Below, one piece after another: positions 45,594 to 56,411 of a DNA stretch of 64,000 nucleotides (its first letter is position 1; each line of letters begins with the position of its first letter). The DNA comes from Dendrobates tinctorius (Eukaryota): assembly GCF_039654945.1 (NCBI RefSeq), contig NW_027361924.1, positions 10,664,001 through 10,728,000 of the forward strand, read 5' to 3'. Position numbers and translations under genes: made by a program. The notes below the pieces were generated by a model, which worked only from the letters and a program-made list of their open reading frames with translations, searched no databases and was not told the DNA's origin.

Positions 45594-45983
45594 GGTTTAG
45601 CGGGTCGGTACAGATGGGTCGATATGAAGCCTTCTCCTCCACTGTCTTCTCTCTTATACTCGATCGCTGTGAGTCAGAGGACAAACAATGCCCAGGTGCA
45701 GACAGAACCCAGGGGCGCAGCTCATTTTTGTAAGCGGTCCAGCCAACCAGATCCACGACTCTTAAGTCTCCAGTATTTACTGAGGAGCCCAGAGATGGCC
45801 GCGAACAATCCCTCCACCCCGAAACTGAGCTGCACGACCCGACCTCAGATTGTCCTTAGTTCACCCGCACAACCAGCTCTCCTAATACAACAGGGCCGAC
45901 AACAGCCGAAATCTCAGGTACACAAGTGGTCACAGTCTCTGACCAACACTGGTGGGGACCAAACACCCAACACTCCCCGACTA

Positions 45984-48900
45984 TGTATCTAATCCTCTCC
46001 TGTGTGATACTGACTGCTGAGCCGTGTATCTAATCCTATCCTGTGTGATACTGACTGTTGAGCCATGCATCTAATCCTATCCTGTGTGATACTGTCTGCT
46101 GAGCCGTGTATCTAATCCTTTCCTGTGTGATACTGACTGTTGAGCCGTGTATCTAATCCTATCCTGTGTGATACTGACTGCTGAGCGGTGTATCTAATCC
46201 TATCCTGTATGATACTGACTGCTGAGCCGTGTATCTAATCCTCTCCTGTGTGATACTGACTGCAGAGCCGTGTATCTAATCCTCTCCTGTGTGATACTGA
46301 CTGTTGAGCCGTGTATCTAATCCTATCCTGTGTGATACTGACTGCTGAGCCGTGTATCTAATCCTATCCTGTGTGATACTGACTGTTGAGCCGTGCATCT
46401 AATCCTATCCTGTGTGATACTGTCTGCTGAGCCGTGTATCTAATCCTTTCCTGTGTGATACTGACTGTTGAGCCGTGTATCTAATCCTATCCTGTGTGAT
46501 ACTGACTGCTGAGCGGTGTATCTAATCCTATCCTGTATGATACTGACTGCTGAGCCGTGTATCTAATCCTCTCCTGTGTGATACTGACTGCAGAGCCGTG
46601 TATCTAATCCTCTCCTGTGTGATACTGACTGCTGAGCCGTGTATCTAATCCTATCCTGTGAGATACTGACTGCTGAGCCGTGTATCTAATCCTCTCCTGT
46701 GTGATACTGACTGCTGAGCCGTGTATCTAATCCTCTCCTGTGTGATACTGACTGCTGAGCCGTGTATCTAATCCTATCCTGTGTGATACTGACTGCTGAG
46801 CCGTGTATCTAATCCCCTCCTGTGTGATACTGACTGCTGAGCTGTGTATCTAATCTTGTCCTGTGTGATACTGTCTGCTGAGCCGTGTATCTAATCCTCT
46901 CCTGTGTGATACTGACTGCTGAGCCGTGTATCTAATCCTATCCTGTGTGATACTGACTGCTGAGCCGTGTATCTATACCTCTCCTGTGTGATACTGACTG
47001 CTGAGCCGTGTATCTAATCCTCTCCTGTGTGATACTAACTGCTAAGCCGTGTATCTAATCCTATCCTGTGTGATACTGACTGCTGAGCCGTGTATCTAAT
47101 CCTCTCCTGTGTGATACTGACTGCTGAGCCGTGTATCTAATCCTCTCCTGTGTGATACTGACTGCTGAGCCGTGTATCTAATCTTATCCTGTGTGATACT
47201 GACTGCTGAGCCGTGTATCTAATCCTCTCCTGTGTGATACTGACTGCTGAGCCGTGTATGAAATCCTATCCTGTGTGATACTGACTGCTGAGCCGTGTAT
47301 CTAATCCTATCCTGTGTGATACTGACTGCTGAGCCGTGTATCTAATCTTATCCTGTGTGATACTGACTGCTGAGCCGTGTATCCAATCCTATCCTGTGTG
47401 ATACTGACTGATGAGCTGTTTATCTAATCCTATCCTGTGTGATACTGACTGCTGAGCCGTGTATCTAATCCTCTCCTGTGTGATACTGACTGCTGAGCCG
47501 TGTATCTAATCCTATCCTGTGTGATACTGTCTGCTGAGCCGTGTATCTAATCTTCTGTGTGATACTGTCTGCTGAGCCGTGTATCTAATCCTATCCTGTG
47601 TGATACTGACTGCTGAGCCGTGTATCTAATCCTTTCCTGTGTGATACTGGCTGCTGAGCCGTGTATCTAATCCTATCCTGTGTGATACTGTCTGCTGAGC
47701 TGTGTATCTAATCCTATCCTGTGTGACACTGACTGCTGAGCTGTGCATCTAATCCTATCCTTTGTGATACTGTCTGCTGAGCCGTGTATCTAATCCTCTC
47801 CTGTGTGATACTGTCTGCTGAGCCGTGTATCTAATCCTATCCTGTGTGATACTGACTGCTGAGCCGTGTATCTAATCCTCTGCTGTGTGATACTGACTGC
47901 TCAGCCGTGTATCTAATCCTATTCTGTGTGATACTGACTGCTGAGCCGTGTATCTAATCCTCTCCTGTGTGATACTGACTGCTGAACCGTGTATCTAATC
48001 CTCTCCTGTGTGATACTGACTGCTGAACCGTGTATCTAATCCTCTCCTGTGTGATACTGACTGCTAAGCCGTGTATCTAATCCTCTCCTGTGTGACACTG
48101 ACTGCTGAGCCGTGTATCTCATCCTCTCCTGTGTGATACTGACTGCTGAGCCGTGTATCTAATCATATCCTGTGTGATACTGACTGCAGAGCCGTGTATC
48201 TAATCCTCTGCTGTGTGATACTGACTGCTGATCCGTGTATCTAATCCTATCCTGTGTGATACTGACTGCTGATCTGTGTATCTAATCCTATCCTGTGTGA
48301 TACTGACTGCTGAGCCGTGTATCTAATCCTATCCTGTGTGATACTGACTGCTGAGCTGTGCATTTAATCCTATCCTGTGTGATACTGTCTGCTGAGCCGT
48401 GTATCTAATCCTCTCCTATGTGATACTGTCTGCTGAGCCGTGTATCTAATCCTATCCTGTGATACTGACTGCTGAGCCGTGTATCTAATCCTATCCTGTG
48501 TGATACTGACTGCTGAGCAGTGTATCTAATCCTATCCTGTGTGATACTGACTGCTGAGCCGTGTATCTAATCCTATCCTGTGTGATACTGACTGTTGAGC
48601 CGTGTATCTAATCCTATCCTGTGTGATACTGTCTGCTGAGCCATGTATCTAATCCTCTCCTGTGTAACACTGACTGCCGAGCCGTGTATCTAATCCTATC
48701 CTGTGTGATACTGACTGCTGAGCCGTGTATCTAATCCTCTCCTGTGTGATAGTGACTCCTGAGCCGTGTATCTAATCCTCCCCTGTGTGATACTGACTGC
48801 TGAGCCGTGTATCTAATCCTCTCCTGTGTGATACTGACTGCTGAGCCGTGTATCTCATCCCCTCCTGTGTGATACTGTCTGCTGAGCCGTGTATCTAATC

Positions 48901-50377
48901 CTCTCCTTTGTGATACTGACTGCTGAGCCGTGTATCTAATCCTCTCCTGTGTGATACTGACTGCTGAGCCGTGTATCTAATCCCCTCCTGTGTGATACTG
49001 TCTGCTGAGCCGTGCATCTAATCCTCTCCTGTGTGATACTGACTGCTGAGCCATGTATCTAATCCTATCCTGTGTGATACTGACTGCTGAGCCGTGTATC
49101 TAATCCTCTCCTGTGTGATACTGACTGCTGAGCCGTGTATCTAATCCTCTCCTGTGTGATACTGACTGCTGAGCCGTGTATCTAATCCCCTCCTGTGTGA
49201 TACTGACTGCTGAGCCGTGTATCTAATCCCCTCCTGTGTGATACTGACTGCTGAGCCGTGTATCTAATCCTATCCTGTGTGATACTGACTGCTGAGCCGT
49301 GTATCTAATCCTATCCTGTGTGATACTGACTGCTGAGCTGTGTATCTAATCCTATCCTGTGTGATACTGACTGCTGAGCCGTGTATCTAATCCTATCCTG
49401 TGTGATACTGACTGCTGAGCCGTGTATCTAATCCTCTCCTGTGTGATACTGACTGCTGAGCCGTGTATCTAATCCTCTCCTGTGTGATACTGACTGCTGA
49501 GCCGTGTATCTAATCCCCTCCTGTGTGATACTGACTGCTGAGCCGTGTATCTAATCCTCTCCTGTGTGATACTGACTGCTGAGCCGTGTATCTAATCCTA
49601 TCCTGTGTGATACTGACTGCTGAGCCGTGTATCTAATCCCCTCCTGTGTGATACTGTCTGCTGAGCCGTGTATCTAATCCTCTCCTTTGTGATACTGACT
49701 GCTGAGCCGTGTGTCTAATCCTCTCCTGTGTGATACTGACTGCTGAGCCGTGTATCTAATCCTATCCTGTGTGATACTGTCTGCTGAGCCGTGTATCTAA
49801 TCCTATCCTGTGTGATACTGTCTGCTGAGCCGTGTATCTAATCCTCTCCTGTGTGATACTGACTGCTGAGCCGTGTATCTAATCCTCTCCTGTGTGATAC
49901 TGACTGCTGAGCCGTGTATCTAATCCCCTCCTGTGTGATACTGACTGCTGAGCCGTGTATCTAATCCCCTCCTGTGTGATACTGACTGCTGAGCCGTGTA
50001 TCTAATCCTATCCTGTGTGATACTGACTGCTGAGCCGTGTATCTAATCCTATCCTGTGTGATACTGACTGCTGAGCTGTGTATCTAATCCTATCCTGTGT
50101 GATACTGACTGCTGAGCCGTGTATCTAATCCTATCCTGTGTGATACTGACTGCTGAGCCGTGTATCTAATCCTATCCTGTGTGATACTGACTGCTGAGCC
50201 GTGTATCTAATCCTATCCTGTGTGATACTGACTGCTGAGCTGTGTATCTAATCCTATCCTGTGTGATACTGACTGCTGAGCCGTGTATCTAATCCTATCC
50301 TGTGTGATACTGACTGCTGAGCCGTGTATCTAATCCTATCCTGTGTGATACTGACTGCTGAGCCGTGTATCTAATCC
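45984..50377. repeat. 41-bp satellite, left part
   Basis: gagccgtgtatctaatcctatcctgtgtgatactgactgct units. Confidence 0.97.
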
Positions 50378-50836
50378 TGGGCGGGTGCATCAGACAGTGG
50401 CTCCGCCCACTTCCTCCCACAATCGTCCTCCCACTCACACACCCACCCCTTCACTTTTGCTGGGACCTGGGCGTTATAGCCGGCCTGTAGCTCCACCCAT
50501 TTCAGCCCAGCGTCACCGCATAGGCCCGCCCATCTCCAGTCCCACCCCTAATCCTTTGTTTAGGGACAGGCATCTGAGCCCCTAGATCCACCCAAGCAGC
50601 GTCCCATCTCTACTTCCTCCATGTCTGCAGCAATGGCAAGTCCTGTAGAGCAGCCTCTACAGAGGAGGCCGCCAGCCATCTCAGGTACACCCGGTCTGCA
50701 ACATCATCCCTGCGGGCGCAGCTCTGCCGCCAGTGCGGGATGACGTGGGATGCAGAAGAAACAATGCTGCGGCCGAGCGCACTGTCCGGACCAACCCGAC
50801 CGTTCAGCGCGCTCTGCTCCAACAACAAGGTGAAAC

Positions 50837-53136
50837 ATGTATAGCAAGCACAACACACTATACACCGCCGACCCTCCAATGAGACAATCCTGCTCTGCAC
50901 ACCCCACATCATTGGCGGACATAACGCCATCCTCCCTGCTAAACGCCACACAGACAGCAATCGCCCAGAGCCCTCTGAATATTCCTCTTCAACTGGTACC
51001 AGAAACTACCCTTAGGCAAACACCAAGTCAGCATATAAGCTCTAACCTTGGTAGTCGAAATTCCATACACCACAGGTCTTTATCCCCCTCCTCAGGGGAT
51101 TCCCATCACCATTCTCGCTGTCTCTCTGTCTATCGCTGTTCCCGTTTCAGTCAAAAGCGAAGCTCCAATAGAAGCCGTCACAGATCGCGGTCATCCAGGT
51201 GGCGGTCACCTTCTACTTCTGAACAGTCCGACGCACCCGAGAGTTGTCGCAGCAGGCGGTCGGGGGCATCCAGAAGACGGCGTACGAGATCTCCATCCCA
51301 GTCAGCCAGACGGAGGGCCTCCTCAACACCAATTGGGACCTCCGGTCAGATCGTGGTCGGAACCAGTGCGCAGCTATCATCGACAGCATATCCACCACGG
51401 GCAGACAGCAGCCATCAGCTGCCACATGCTCCACCATCATATCCACCACGGGCAGACAGCAGTCATCAGCTGCCACATGCTCCACCATCATATCCACCAC
51501 GGGCAGACAGCAGTCATCAGCTGCCACATGCTCCACCGTCATATCCACCACGGGCAGACAGCAGTCATCGGCTGCCACATGCTCCACCATCATACCCACC
51601 ACGGGCAGACAGCAGTCATCAGCTGCCACATGCTCCACCGTCATATCCACCACGGGCAGACAGCAGTCATCAGCTGCCACATGCTCCACCGTCATATCCA
51701 CCACGGGCAGACAGCAGTCATCAGCTGCCACATGCTCCACCGTCATATCCACCACGGGCAGACAGCAGTCATCAGCTGCCACATGCTCCACCGTCATATC
51801 CACCACGGGCAGACAGCAGTCATCGGCTGCCACATGCTCCACCATCATATCCACCACGGGCAGACAGCAGTCATCGGCTGCCACATGCTCCACCATCATA
51901 TCCACCACGGGCAGACAGCAGTCATCAGCTGCCACATGCTCCACCGTCATATCCACCACGGGCAGACAGCAGTCATCGGCTGCCACATGCTCCACCATCA
52001 TATCCACCACGGGCAGACAGCAGTCATCGGCTGCCACATGCTCCACCGTCATACCCACCACGGGCAGACAGCAGTCATCGGCTGCCACATGCTCCACCAT
52101 TGCCCACAAGCCGGGAAGAGCTATCACTTCAACCCATTTCAGGTTCCGTTTCTGATATGGAAGTCCAGCAACATCCAACGGGTCTTGGAGCGCAGAGTCA
52201 TCAAAGGTCACCAGTCATGGGCAGGACATCACCACCACCGGAGTCGGGGTACCTCCATCTCCTGGAGACTCTCGATCAGCGAGGAACAGCGGTGAGTTTG
52301 GCGTAATCAACGCATCTAATAATACACATGACGCTGTGGAAAACAGCCTGGTATCTGCTATCAGGGCGTTAGTTGACCACTTACACCAGCCGGGAGGTCA
52401 AACCATTACTAGGAATATACCTCAATTAGCTAGTTTACACAAAGATGCTTTTTTCTGTGGAATTAGTCCGCTAGGTACACACATAGACCAAGATACAAAA
52501 GAAAAAATTTGGAATAATGATTACGTTGACATACGGTCACTGTTATCAGCAGACCAGCAGTCAGTAGATAAGGAAAGGAGGACTGGCGAATGGTCATACG
52601 ATAGAAATAGAGGTAAAATAGCGCATACCATGAACAACTGGCTGCAGGCCTTCGCAGTCCTAGGATGTATCATGGGTCAAAAACACCCAGAACGCTGCTC
52701 TGAGTTATTCATATACCAGGATTTGATATATAACTCCTATAAGTCTCATGGCGGTGTTGCTTGGAGGCGCTATGACGAGGAGTTCCGCAGGAGGCTGGCC
52801 CTGCAACCAGATCTAGGATGGGGAGTAAAAGCCACAGATGTCTGGCTACGACTATTGCTTACACAAAAACACCCCCCCTTTTCATCATCGGCCACTAGTT
52901 TGTCAGCAGCCGCAGGCCAGAACTTAGTGGTCGTACGGAGACCAGGGGCCTGCTTGTTATACAATGAAGGAAACTGTCGCTTTCAGGCGGCATGCAGATA
53001 TAGACATCATTGTGCAACCTGCGGTGGCGGACACCCTGCATCAAGGTGTACACGCTTCGCAAACGCAAATTCTACGAGGCAAAACCCCGGTGAGCGTAGC
53101 CGCCATGGGCCCCTGGCTAAGCCTTTACCCCAATAA
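50837..53136 (+). CDS. Gag-like ORF1, split into two frames in this copy
   Basis: RS-rich and repeat-containing N-part (50837-52306). The C-part is open from 52156 to 53136 and has WLQAF..WRRYDEEFR and CLLYNEGNC..C..H-C..CGGGH..C zinc fingers. Confidence 0.65.
51388..52099 (+). repeat. 51-bp tandem repeat (~14 copies) inside gag
   Basis: atatccaccacgggcagacagcagtcatcagctgccacatgctccaccgtc units. Confidence 0.95.
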
Positions 53137-54670
53137 AGAAGCTGCTCAGCAATTATCTGACGGTTTTAGGTCCGGTTTTTTCATCCCCTTTAAATTTAAC
53201 CAAGCACCAACATCAGCTAAGAATCTAAAATCAGCTCGGGAGTTCCCGGAGGTCTTACAGCAAAATATCATAAAAGAGGTCGAACTCGGCAGGATGGCGG
53301 GCCCATTTCAATCATTACCATTTAAAAATTTCAGGATTTCGCCCTTAGGTATTGTGCCCAAAAAAGAACCTGGTAAATATCGGCTAATTCACCATCTATC
53401 TTACCCTAAAGGCGATTCGGTCAACGACGCAATTCCCCCCGAAGACTCGTCGGTAACTTACGCGTCGTTCGACAGAGCAATTGAGCTTGTGCGAGCAGCG
53501 GGGCCCGGTGCCCTGTTGGCAAAGACCGATATAGAGTCAGCTTTCCGTCTATTACCCGTGCACCCCAAATGCTTTCATTTGTTGGGTTGTAAGGTGGACC
53601 AGCTTTTTTATTTCGACATATGCCTGCCCATGGGCTGCTCCATTTCCTGTCACTATTTCGAACTTTTCAGCACCTTCTTAGACTGGGTAATACGTCACGA
53701 AACAGGCAGCAATTCCACAATCCACTACCTCGATGATTTTTTGTTTGTGGGTCCAAAGGAATCTAAACTCTGTTCTTTTCTGCTTCAAAAGTTTAAATTT
53801 ATTTCTAGGCTTTTCGGTGTCCCACTATCGCCGGAGAAAACGCTCGGTCCGTGTACTGTTCTCCCTTTCCTTGGTATTGAAATAGACACAAACGAAATGA
53901 TTTTTCGTTTACCAGCGGATAAAATCGAAAAAACACTCCAAATGGTTAAAAGTTTCCTCGTGGTAAAGAAAGTCACCCTCCAGCAGATGCAGTCCTTACT
54001 AGGTTTACTCAACTTTGCTTGCCGGGTAATGCCGGTTGGCAGGGCTTTCTCACGCAGGTTATCACTAGCTACAAAGGGCATCGCCCAGCCGGGCCACCGA
54101 ATCAGAATTAATCGCTCAATGAGAGCGGATTTGTCCGTGTGGAATGCATTCTTGGAAAACTACAATGGGCATACATGTGTCATGTCTCAGGAAAGGCTAA
54201 ACAGCGCCCTAGGTCTACTGGTGGGCGCGGATCTCACAAATGGTTTTGTTGCAATCTACTGCAACCAATGGTGCAAAAGCAGATGGCCGGACATATGGAC
54301 CTCTGCCAACTGGGGCTGCAACCCCGTCTTGTGGGAGATGTTTGCTATAGTTACATCTGTCGAACTATGGGGTGACAAACTAAAAAATGTAAATCTCAGA
54401 TTTCTAATCAAAAATCCGGGAACCGCCAAATGCTTGAACAGTATGTCTTCCTCATCACCACCGATTCTTGCGCTGTCGCGCCGCCTTGCACTATTATGCC
54501 TTAGACACAACATCTGGTGCCGAGCCAGAGTGACGCCTACTGTGGATGATAAAATGGTTAACTCTCTGTTGTCTTCCGATTGGCAGGCCTTCAAAGTCTT
54601 CCTTCCCAGCGCAGAACCAACGGGCCTACTGTGTCCTCCCTCCCTCTGGGACACAGTGGCCAATCACTGA
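52964..54670 (+). CDS. DIRS-type reverse transcriptase + degenerate RNase H
   Basis: SPLGIVPKK..YRLIHHLS, KTDIESAFR, LPMG, YLDDF, FLGIEID, QSLLGLLNF; intact 568-aa ORF. Confidence 0.93.
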   Translation: MKETVAFRRHADIDIIVQPAVADTLHQGVHASQTQILRGKTPVSVAAMGPWLSLYPNKEAAQQLSDGFRSGFFIPFKFNQAPTSAKNLKSAREFPEVLQQNIIKEVELGRMAGPFQSLPFKNFRISPLGIVPKKEPGKYRLIHHLSYPKGDSVNDAIPPEDSSVTYASFDRAIELVRAAGPGALLAKTDIESAFRLLPVHPKCFHLLGCKVDQLFYFDICLPMGCSISCHYFELFSTFLDWVIRHETGSNSTIHYLDDFLFVGPKESKLCSFLLQKFKFISRLFGVPLSPEKTLGPCTVLPFLGIEIDTNEMIFRLPADKIEKTLQMVKSFLVVKKVTLQQMQSLLGLLNFACRVMPVGRAFSRRLSLATKGIAQPGHRIRINRSMRADLSVWNAFLENYNGHTCVMSQERLNSALGLLVGADLTNGFVAIYCNQWCKSRWPDIWTSANWGCNPVLWEMFAIVTSVELWGDKLKNVNLRFLIKNPGTAKCLNSMSSSSPPILALSRRLALLCLRHNIWCRARVTPTVDDKMVNSLLSSDWQAFKVFLPSAEPTGLLCPPSLWDTVANH

Positions 54671-55548
54671 TGCCCTTGATTCGAGCCTCAGTGACACCGG
54701 CTACCTTGGAGGTCTATGGTAAGGCATGGGAAGAGTGGTGCTCGCTAGTAAAAGGGAGGCCAGTTGATACGTGTGTTCGGGCGAGATGCGACGTGGTGGT
54801 AGAACTCCTGAATCTGCTCAAGAGTAGAGGTGCGTCGGGCACATTAGCGCAGCGTAATTTAACGGGAGTAGCCTTTTTCTTTCAGCTAATGGGATGGGCC
54901 GACGTAACTAAATATTTCTTCATAAAGCAAGCCGTTAAAGGCTGGAGAAGGCTCCAACCCAGTCAGGAATGTCGTCGCCCCGTTTCTTTAAGTCTGTTGC
55001 ACGATATTATAACAAAATCTGAAACGGTGTGCAAGTCTCAATACGAATCTGCCCTAATATCTACAGCGTTTGCAATCGCATTCTTCGGGGCGCTGAGGAT
55101 TAGTGAACTGGTGCCGCATTCTAAAACAGCACTAATAGGCGGGTTAATTAATGAGGATCTCGTAATATGCAGCGACGCTCTGCGCATTAGAGTGCGGAAA
55201 TCCAAATGCGATCCCACCGGTAGAGGGTCGTGGGTCCTGGTCAAGGCTCTAGAAGGCCCCATATGCCCTGTTAAAATAGTAAGACACTACGCGGTTATAA
55301 GACACGAAAGTCGTTTTTTCCTCTCACACACCGACGGGTCCCCACTTACTAAATATCAATTTCACACAATTTTTAAAAAATGTCTACAAGCTGTCGGTGT
55401 AGACCCCAAAGAATACGGAACGCATTCTTTTAGAATCGGAGCAGCCACTGAAGCAGCTAGGGCCGGTGCAGCTGAAGCTGAAGTACAGAGATTGGGTCGT
55501 TGGAAATCCGCATGCTTTGCGAGATACATAAGACCAGACCTGCTATAA
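54670..55548 (+). CDS. Tyrosine recombinase
   Basis: FFGALRISE (R), RKSK (K), HSFRIGAA (HxxR), GRW, RYIR (Y); the ATG overlaps the pol stop (TGATG). Confidence 0.93.
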   Translation: MPLIRASVTPATLEVYGKAWEEWCSLVKGRPVDTCVRARCDVVVELLNLLKSRGASGTLAQRNLTGVAFFFQLMGWADVTKYFFIKQAVKGWRRLQPSQECRRPVSLSLLHDIITKSETVCKSQYESALISTAFAIAFFGALRISELVPHSKTALIGGLINEDLVICSDALRIRVRKSKCDPTGRGSWVLVKALEGPICPVKIVRHYAVIRHESRFFLSHTDGSPLTKYQFHTIFKKCLQAVGVDPKEYGTHSFRIGAATEAARAGAAEAEVQRLGRWKSACFARYIRPDLL

Positions 55549-55567
55549 CACATCTTGTTTCTTACAG

Positions 55568-56163
55568 GAGATTATAAGCCCGCTGTTTGGGTGTTGGGAC
55601 ATTCTTTTATTTATTGGGCGTGCAAAAGAGCCGAGATACGCCCCGGTGGAAAGAATTTTTACTTCCCACAACTAGAGGTCAACTGGAGAGACATCCGAGG
55701 GCTCCAGTGGGAGCAGATCTTCCCGGAGTTGGTTAAAATTTCTAAATCGGCTAAAGGGCGGCTGATATTGGTATTACATGCTGGTGGTAATGATTTGTGC
55801 AAGACAACAGGAGCGGAGCTCTTCACGACAATGAAAACCGACATAAAGCGGGCTGTTTGTCTTATACCAGATATGGTGGTGGTGTGGTCTGATATAATAT
55901 CACGAACAGTCTGGCACGGAGCTAAAGACCCTAAAGCCATTGACAAGTCAAGGAGAAAGATAAACTCGAAAATGGCAAAGTTTGTCAAAGAGAACTTCGG
56001 CATCGTGGTTCACCACCACAATCTGGAAGAAAACATCTCACCCCTCCTGAGACCGGACGGCGTTCATCTAACAGATATCGGGCTAGATATGTTCTTATTA
56101 AACTTGCAGGACGGGGTTGAACAGGCCTTAATGATGTTGTGTGGGGGTCGGAGTCCTGTGTAG
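55568..56163 (+). CDS. SGNH/GDSL hydrolase (esterase) domain, probably a spliced exon
   Basis: Block I VLGHS, block II IRG, block III HAGGNDL, block V DGVHL; no ATG ahead of the catalytic Ser; acceptor tcttgtttcttacAG at 55567. Confidence 0.85.
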
Positions 56164-56411
56164 GTCATACACATGATCCTCCGTGGCGGTAGTGTAGAGG
56201 GGGGCAAGGTTCGTAACCTCTCATCAGCCGACGTGCCCAGCGGTCGCGGGCCTACAGCTGTGAGTCCGTTGCGAATTGTACTTGCCTCACTCTGCTTATT
56301 AATAAACTGTGACCGACCTGTTCAACCCATCCATGCTTGTCGGTGTTTTGTTATTACGGGATTGGTGGGAGGCGGGAAGGCACTGCTTACGACACACAGG
56401 TCTCTGCAGTC

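Follow-up and report, generated by a model that had tools for sequence, protein, structure and literature searches.

Four predicted splice sites and the expression of recombinase and esterase in a frog Ngaro retrotransposon

How does a retrotransposon express a last open reading frame (ORF) that lies behind the stop codon of its neighbour and has no start codon of its own? The question is raised by an element in a stretch of 64,000 nucleotides (nt) from Dendrobates tinctorius (assembly GCF_039654945.1, contig NW_027361924.1, positions 10,664,001 to 10,728,000 of the forward strand), which is called the window below and whose own numbering is used throughout. The element is assigned to the Ngaro retrotransposons and encodes Gag, a reverse transcriptase with RNase H (RT), a tyrosine recombinase (YR) and an SGNH hydrolase. 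The SGNH ORF (open 55549-56163) contains no ATG ahead of its catalytic serine, the first in-frame ATG (55831) being downstream of the GHS serine at 55603. An earlier note on this DNA had stated as much, and had proposed that the SGNH domain is reached by splicing from a donor in gag. The sites and phases on which that proposal drew have held up, and both sites are conserved, but the route was incomplete, a second acceptor and a second donor having been overlooked.

The reading favoured here, with a probability of about 0.85, involves four sites. Unspliced RNA would serve as genome and as message for full Gag. Joining donor D1 in gag to acceptor A1 at the end of RT would give a Gag(N)-recombinase. 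The same join, followed by joining of donor D2, 132 nt on, to acceptor A2 behind the YR stop, would give a Gag(N)-esterase with 44 additional amino acids between its two parts, while skipping of this cassette (D1 to A2) would give Gag(N)-SGNH directly. The features concerned are:

52289..52297, + strand: donor D1 in gag, phase 1, G/GTGAGT, used in gene models P0020, P0204 and P0350-P0354
54559..54586, + strand: acceptor A1 inside the end of RT, with a branch-like TAAC, a pyrimidine tract and CAG, used in P0020, P0204, P0350-P0354 and P0002
54587..54718, + strand: cassette exon of 132 nt, phase 1-1, read in the YR frame and including its ATG (54670)
54716..54724, + strand: donor D2 in the start of YR, phase 1, G/GTAAGG, used by all seven SGNH models of the element's own family
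54587..55548, + strand: YR frame from acceptor A1 to the stop, Pfam Phage_integrase above cut-off
55543..55567, + strand: acceptor A2, with a branch-like TAAC overlapping the YR stop, a pyrimidine tract and CAG
55568..56163, + strand: SGNH hydrolase exon, with GHS Ser 55603, GGND Asn 55789, DGVH Asp 56056 and His 56065

Splice sites, gene models and the esterase

The outer pair of sites is as first described: the donor AGCG/GTGAGT at 52291/52292 is phase 1 in the frame open from 52156 to 53136, the acceptor ..CTTACAG/GA at 55567/55568 is phase 1 in the SGNH frame, and the branch-like CTATAAC occupies 55543-55549, its TAA being the YR stop. A D1-A2 join would excise 3276 nt, in agreement with the 3.3-kb intron predicted. 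Taken singly, these sites carry little weight. Where the sequence itself has 1 acceptor-like and 2 donor-like sites, 500 shuffles of 52110-56170 gave means of 0.87 and 1.05, so one copy alone is not above chance and the evidence for the sites is comparative. Another donor-like site, at 53090, was rejected; it is kept in only some families and is used by none of the mapped models.

For the comparison, the window copy was aligned with 47 others (48 sequences, forming 23 clusters at 88% identity; their SGNH proteins are as little as 50% identical), by means of regional alignments. Acceptor A2 reads YAG in 48 of 48 sequences and is always phase 1 to SGNH. This holds despite downstream indels (L088, L091, L096) or an altered relation of the YR and SGNH frames, and also where the start of the SGNH exon is three codons shorter. 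Since A2 is non-coding, protein constraint cannot explain its invariance. D1 is kept in most families, and 28 of 29 close siblings have it intact. G/GTRAGT ranks first among local donors in 25 of the 29 sequences covering the region; it stands 138-164 nt ahead of the gag core, in a poorly conserved part of gag. The site is phase 1 apart from four or five locally frameshifted copies, and in one family it reads GTAAGT and an amino acid is altered.

The inner pair, acceptor A1 and donor D2, flanks the predicted cassette exon, which measures 132 nt in 15 of the 23 cluster representatives; the other eight, without coverage or decayed, were left out of the counts. The glutamine codon at A1 is CAG in 18/18 clusters, whereas the figure for 13 other Gln columns is 129/226 (57%); a TAAC or TGAC resembling a branch point stands at -28 of A1 in 14/15 intact clusters while the RT residues vary. 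At D2 the glycine codon is GGT in 16/17 and the lysine codon AAG in 16/18 clusters, against 33% and 34% elsewhere. In all 15 intact clusters A1 is followed by an open YR frame, which is closed 10-28 nt upstream of A1.

Public gene models join these same sites. P0020 (XP_073413114.1), which matches sibling copy L031 over 525/525 residues, consists of gag exons joined D1-A1 and then the whole recombinase. The SGNH models of the element's own family, seven in one cluster, all use D2-A2, and six of them D1-A1 as well; P0204, P0352 and P0354, which carry both joins, match L035, L034 and L031 respectively over 287/287 residues. P0349 (XP_073414754.1) equals the window copy over 214/214 residues, its sole exact match among the places examined, and runs from the YR ATG at 54670 through D2-A2. 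As this ATG reads into SGNH after the join, the esterase need not always be a Gag fusion, and the absence of an in-frame start holds for the SGNH ORF itself but not for this spliced form.

Public long SGNH proteins fall into two forms, 44 residues apart, the extra piece mapping to 54587-54718. At the single Bufo locus LOC122944427, isoforms X1, X2 and X3 are Gag-YR, Gag-cassette-SGNH and Gag-SGNH, the two SGNH forms differing by exactly 44 residues; the same three products, with the same 44-residue difference, come from a single locus in Engystomops (XP_072005002-4). Alternative isoforms in that annotation pipeline normally require transcript evidence. The gag C-terminal domain occurs in 0 of 19 long SGNH proteins from frogs. 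Among long YR proteins, 38 of 53 have an extension of at least 100 residues without RT, SGNH or the gag C-terminal domain. In seven models with foreign N-termini (P0007, P0009, P0022, P0030, P0033, P0034 and P0037) the alignment to the local families, of low identity, ends at the position of D1. The shared Gag N-terminus opens with a short conserved segment. A search with an N-terminal Gag profile found 12 proteins only, at a low cut-off, so the identification of the distant N-termini as Gag depends on weak alignments.

Long YR models with low-complexity N-termini and without RT are also present in lizards (P0058, P0060, P0062) and a sea star (P0065), which suggests the same splice outside amphibians. 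Several SGNH repeats occur in each of the very long predicted proteins P0205, P0213, P0229 and P0232, probably through chaining of predictions across many copies.

Deletion copies do not explain the gene models, since the joined forms are absent from genome DNA: exact patterns for D1-A1, D1-A2 and D2-A2 gave 0 matches each, against 114 for the unspliced acceptor A2 used as control.

The last ORF is, on its motifs and modelled structure, an SGNH hydrolase with intact catalytic residues. Blocks I (Ser), II (Gly), III (Asn) and V (DxxH) are all present; among 22 sequences S12 is nearly invariant, and G44, N74, D163 and H166 are invariant. The predicted structure (predicted local distance difference test, pLDDT, 94) has the flavodoxin-like SGNH fold, and GDSL/SGNH structures match it at template-modelling (TM) scores of 0.6-0.7 and E 1e-7. 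By sequence the ORF falls below the Pfam gathering scores (Lipase_GDSL_2, 18.2 vs 32.9 bits; Lipase_GDSL, 17.4 vs 23.6), and the best match in a PDB sequence search has an E-value of only 0.076. The analogy to env expression drawn in the earlier note would apply to the mechanism, for which donor and acceptor are conserved and in phase; it fails for the product, which is a soluble alpha/beta SGNH fold and not a membrane envelope protein.

We infer that the spliced RNAs are made and translated. The shared Gag N-terminus would then recruit recombinase and esterase to the particle, the spliced RNAs would end at the AATAAA in repeat B1 and hence not be copied, and the esterase would presumably act on lipids, binding them like the esterase of the ORF1 protein (ORF1p) of long interspersed nuclear elements (LINEs).

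Alternative routes to the same proteins

Several observations weigh against the four-site splicing reading. Gene models are predictions, perhaps guided by these very sequence signals, and a short read can be placed on many copies. Four contig runs (of 18 runs listed, none recorded as RNA) were compared with 52110-56400 only, and the D1-A1, D1-A2 and D2-A2 joints were not found among their listed joints, while one contig runs through D1 and most of RT in unspliced form. Contigs being prone to drop rare forms, this result weighs little in either direction, and the support from RNA is indirect. D1 is lost or was not found in 4/29 sequences (L038, L084, L087, L116). Two further Gly columns equal D2 in their use of GGT (17/20 and 19/19), and other Gln columns reach 13/14 CAG. 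The clusters are related, so that the conservation counts are non-independent and are to be taken as support rather than as probabilities. The window copy, lacking repeat A1 and the start of gag, cannot itself make the full Gag fusion. Finally, the RT stop overlaps the YR ATG (TGATG or TAATG; 54668-54672 in the window) in 15/15 intact clusters, so YR may also arise without splicing.

The alternative that survives best, though we consider it doubtful, is that the main esterase mRNA of the family is made by the single 3.3-kb D1-A2 splice, the join 52291-55568 originally proposed. The phases match, and gene models with this join exist for five other frog genera, Bufo, Engystomops, Phyllobates, Ranitomeya and Eleutherodactylus (P0005, P0007, P0012, P0013, P0015, P0017, P0019). 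In the element's own family, however, the direct join occurs in 0/7 SGNH models and D2-A2 in 7/7, and the cassette is included in 11 of the 19 long frog SGNH models.

Less likely still is a scheme in which YR is made from unspliced RNA by reinitiation at the overlapping stop and start (TRATG), a 214-residue esterase from the same ATG after D2-A2, and the Gag fusions are minor. The constancy of the overlap noted above speaks for it, as do models of 214-215 amino acids (P0349, P0356, P0074). It leaves unexplained why the 27 codons from A1 to the ATG are open in the YR frame in 15/15 clusters and why acceptor A1 and D1 are conserved, and the Engystomops cassette has no methionine (P0089, P0100). 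Termination-reinitiation at TRATG may nevertheless add short forms of YR or esterase to the spliced products.

It is very improbable that the sites are cryptic, the models predictor artefacts or noise from host read-through, and SGNH not specifically expressed. The chance-level frequency of such sites in a single copy, a host gene model that uses A1 and A2 of a decayed copy as acceptors (P0002 on L085) and the lack of junctions among the listed joints of the four contig runs would fit this, but the non-coding A2 is invariant across families whose proteins are 50-70% identical, the SGNH frame and catalytic motifs are kept, and the same three isoforms recur in separate genera.

Programmed -1 frameshifting into YR, with incidental splice sites, was proposed for Ngaro by Poulter and Butler 2015 (as quoted in PMC13003380) and agrees with the overlap of YR with RT in the -1 frame, but it is the least credible of these schemes, as a slippery heptamer X XXY YYZ is absent from the overlap in 15/15 clusters, the branch point and tract of acceptor A1 mark where the overlap begins, and SGNH, which follows the YR stop and has no ATG of its own, would be left unaccounted for.

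For RT itself the candidate route is a different one. No conserved phase-1 acceptor for D1 was found in the RT frame of 24 sequences, and none of the 20 mapped proteins, from 96 long RT proteins, is a clear D1-RT fusion. In 13 of 13 copies chosen for coverage the RT frame is free of stops for at least 82 codons ahead of its first conserved methionine, and this open stretch begins near the following motif:

52876..52884, + strand: CCC-TTT-(Y) in the gag frame, a conserved motif where the overlap with RT begins; candidate for a +1 frameshift, a lead only

The base after the motif is a pyrimidine in 12/13 (homologous sites in L034, L040, L092-L095, L098, L099, L101, L104, L111, L112 and L116), and the motif is accordingly put forward as a candidate +1 frameshift site from Gag into RT. 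A wider generalization, which we offer tentatively, would place one Gag N-terminus on every animal Ngaro protein: unspliced RNA would yield full Gag, a +1 shift at CCC-UUU-Y would yield Gag-RT, and alternative splicing would yield Gag(N)-recombinase as well as Gag(N)-esterase. The leader would be a tag for particle assembly through which an active esterase reaches membranes, and the scheme would reach beyond frogs.

The element, its copies and their surroundings

By its ORF content and the split direct repeats of its relatives, the element is a young frog Ngaro retrotransposon (order DIRS), present here as a truncated copy. Pfam searches placed RVT_1 and Phage_integrase above cut-off and no other enzyme domain. 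The gag, RT/RH and YR ORFs are present without protease or DDE integrase, the RT ORF has no methyltransferase match, and the hydrolase ORF follows YR, as in Ngaro elements of amphibians. Complete siblings have the order repeat A1 (about 248 nt) ... B1 (226), A2, spacer, B2, and both repeat pairs are listed in 9 of 16 extended siblings. PMC9210276 describes split direct repeats of this kind as characteristic of Ngaro. In the window copy about 1 kb of the 5' end is missing, including repeat A1 and the start of gag, as is the A2-B2 block. The remaining parts of the copy are:

50379..56410, + strand: Ngaro retrotransposon copy, edges approximate, 5'-truncated, with a single B repeat
50379..52291, + strand: gag N-terminal part, of low complexity, with a Ser/Arg block and a 51-nt tandem array; the shared first coding exon
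51345..52142, + strand: optional intron removing the 51-nt array, with a weak donor CCG/GTCAGA and acceptor TTTCAG/GT (P0020 mapped on L031 and the window)
52292..53136, + strand: C-terminal domain of gag, with fingers of the CCCH/CCHC type (weak match to Pfam zf-CCCH_2, E 0.025); part of the intron in every spliced form
52928..54670, + strand: RT/RNase H frame, Pfam RVT_1 above cut-off, its stop TGA overlapping the YR ATG (TGATG)
56186..56410, + strand: B repeat, with AATAAA at 56301-56306

The gag frame of the window copy is broken, as the earlier note had cautioned: a stop lies at 52153-55, and the frame shifts near 52186. The damage is not family-wide: in 6 of the 16 extended siblings (L031-L034, L035, L037) gag is a single frame of 969-1153 codons through D1 to the normal gag end. 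The 51-nt array (51398-52100) encodes a 17-residue repeat whose copy number varies among siblings and in which several frames are open. It is skipped as an intron in one sibling-copy model (P0020), and models from Engystomops and Ranitomeya likewise include shortened gag isoforms.

Copies of the element at 97-99% identity are numerous in the 6.36-Gb genome. SGNH matches cluster at G000:C6:530567-944984 and G000:C227:491176-646808 with a spacing of about 20-200 kb, which suggests local or segmental amplification of copies. The window copy is embedded in a 41-bp satellite (45861-50378 and from 56411), and the satellite at the right junction resembles the element end. Inverted terminal repeats and satellite targeting were both rejected, since the repeats of full siblings are direct and split and their flanks are for the most part unrelated.

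Acceptors of this strength are also able to trap transcripts of the host. A TRIM-like host model (nuclear factor 7-like, XP_073403569/570) splices into acceptors A1 and A2 of a decayed Ngaro copy (L085:5507-7008, on which P0002 maps) and ends in its SGNH domain, a case of exon capture.

Comparison with known systems

The type of element and its hydrolase ORF are already known. The amphibian Ngaro-like elements DIRS-53_XT and DIRS-54_XT have gag, RT/RH, YR and SGNH ORFs, the hydrolase being described as of 'no proven function' (PMC9210276). The present element resembles them in ORF order (gag-RT/RH-YR-SGNH), in the split direct repeats A1..B1 A2 B2 and in its young copies. It differs in its four conserved splice sites and three predicted spliced products, the string 'splic' being absent from the main text of that paper. 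A splicing plan for Ngaro or DIRS elements was not found in the passages available from the literature, including PMC9210276, PMC7192593, PMC6681497, PMC9341512 and PMC3783388, and an earlier mention is possible. Relative to the frameshift model of Poulter and Butler (as quoted in PMC13003380), the same -1 overlap of RT and YR is seen, and it is explained here by an acceptor and a cassette exon. The four-site plan would bear on how elements of the order DIRS express their overlapping ORFs, and would replace the published guess for the Ngaro YR.

A second parallel is with LINEs of the ZfL2-1 type, in whose ORF1p an esterase is fused to the ORF1 N-terminus within one ORF (PMC3905857; PDB 4c1b). 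Both have an SGNH fold on an ORF1- or Gag-like N-terminus, and 4c1b is among the fold matches of the present esterase (E 2.9e-06, TM 0.45); unlike the single-ORF fusion described there, the Gag-esterase fusion would be made by splicing. Better matches than 4c1b are the GDSL esterases of bacteria and yeast (TM about 0.7), so a common origin with the LINE esterase is not shown. The plan parallels the ORF1p-esterase fusions of LINEs, and it would explain many 'uncharacterized' or misnamed frog gene models. It would also define the real protein forms, Gag-fused recombinase and Gag-fused esterase, needed for biochemistry.

In the env mRNAs of retroviruses and of Drosophila gypsy, and in the pol mRNA of foamy viruses, a 3' gene is reached by splicing out replication genes. 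The 3' genes of the present element would likewise be reached by removing replication genes from genomic RNA. In contrast to env and foamy pol, two 3' genes share its donor, a cassette exon is involved, and the products are a recombinase and an esterase rather than an envelope; moreover D1 lies deep within gag, so that hundreds of Gag residues would be fused to each. Ty1/Copia elements make Gag from a spliced mRNA and likewise set their protein output by splicing; there the product is Gag, and here it would be the integrating enzyme and an accessory enzyme.

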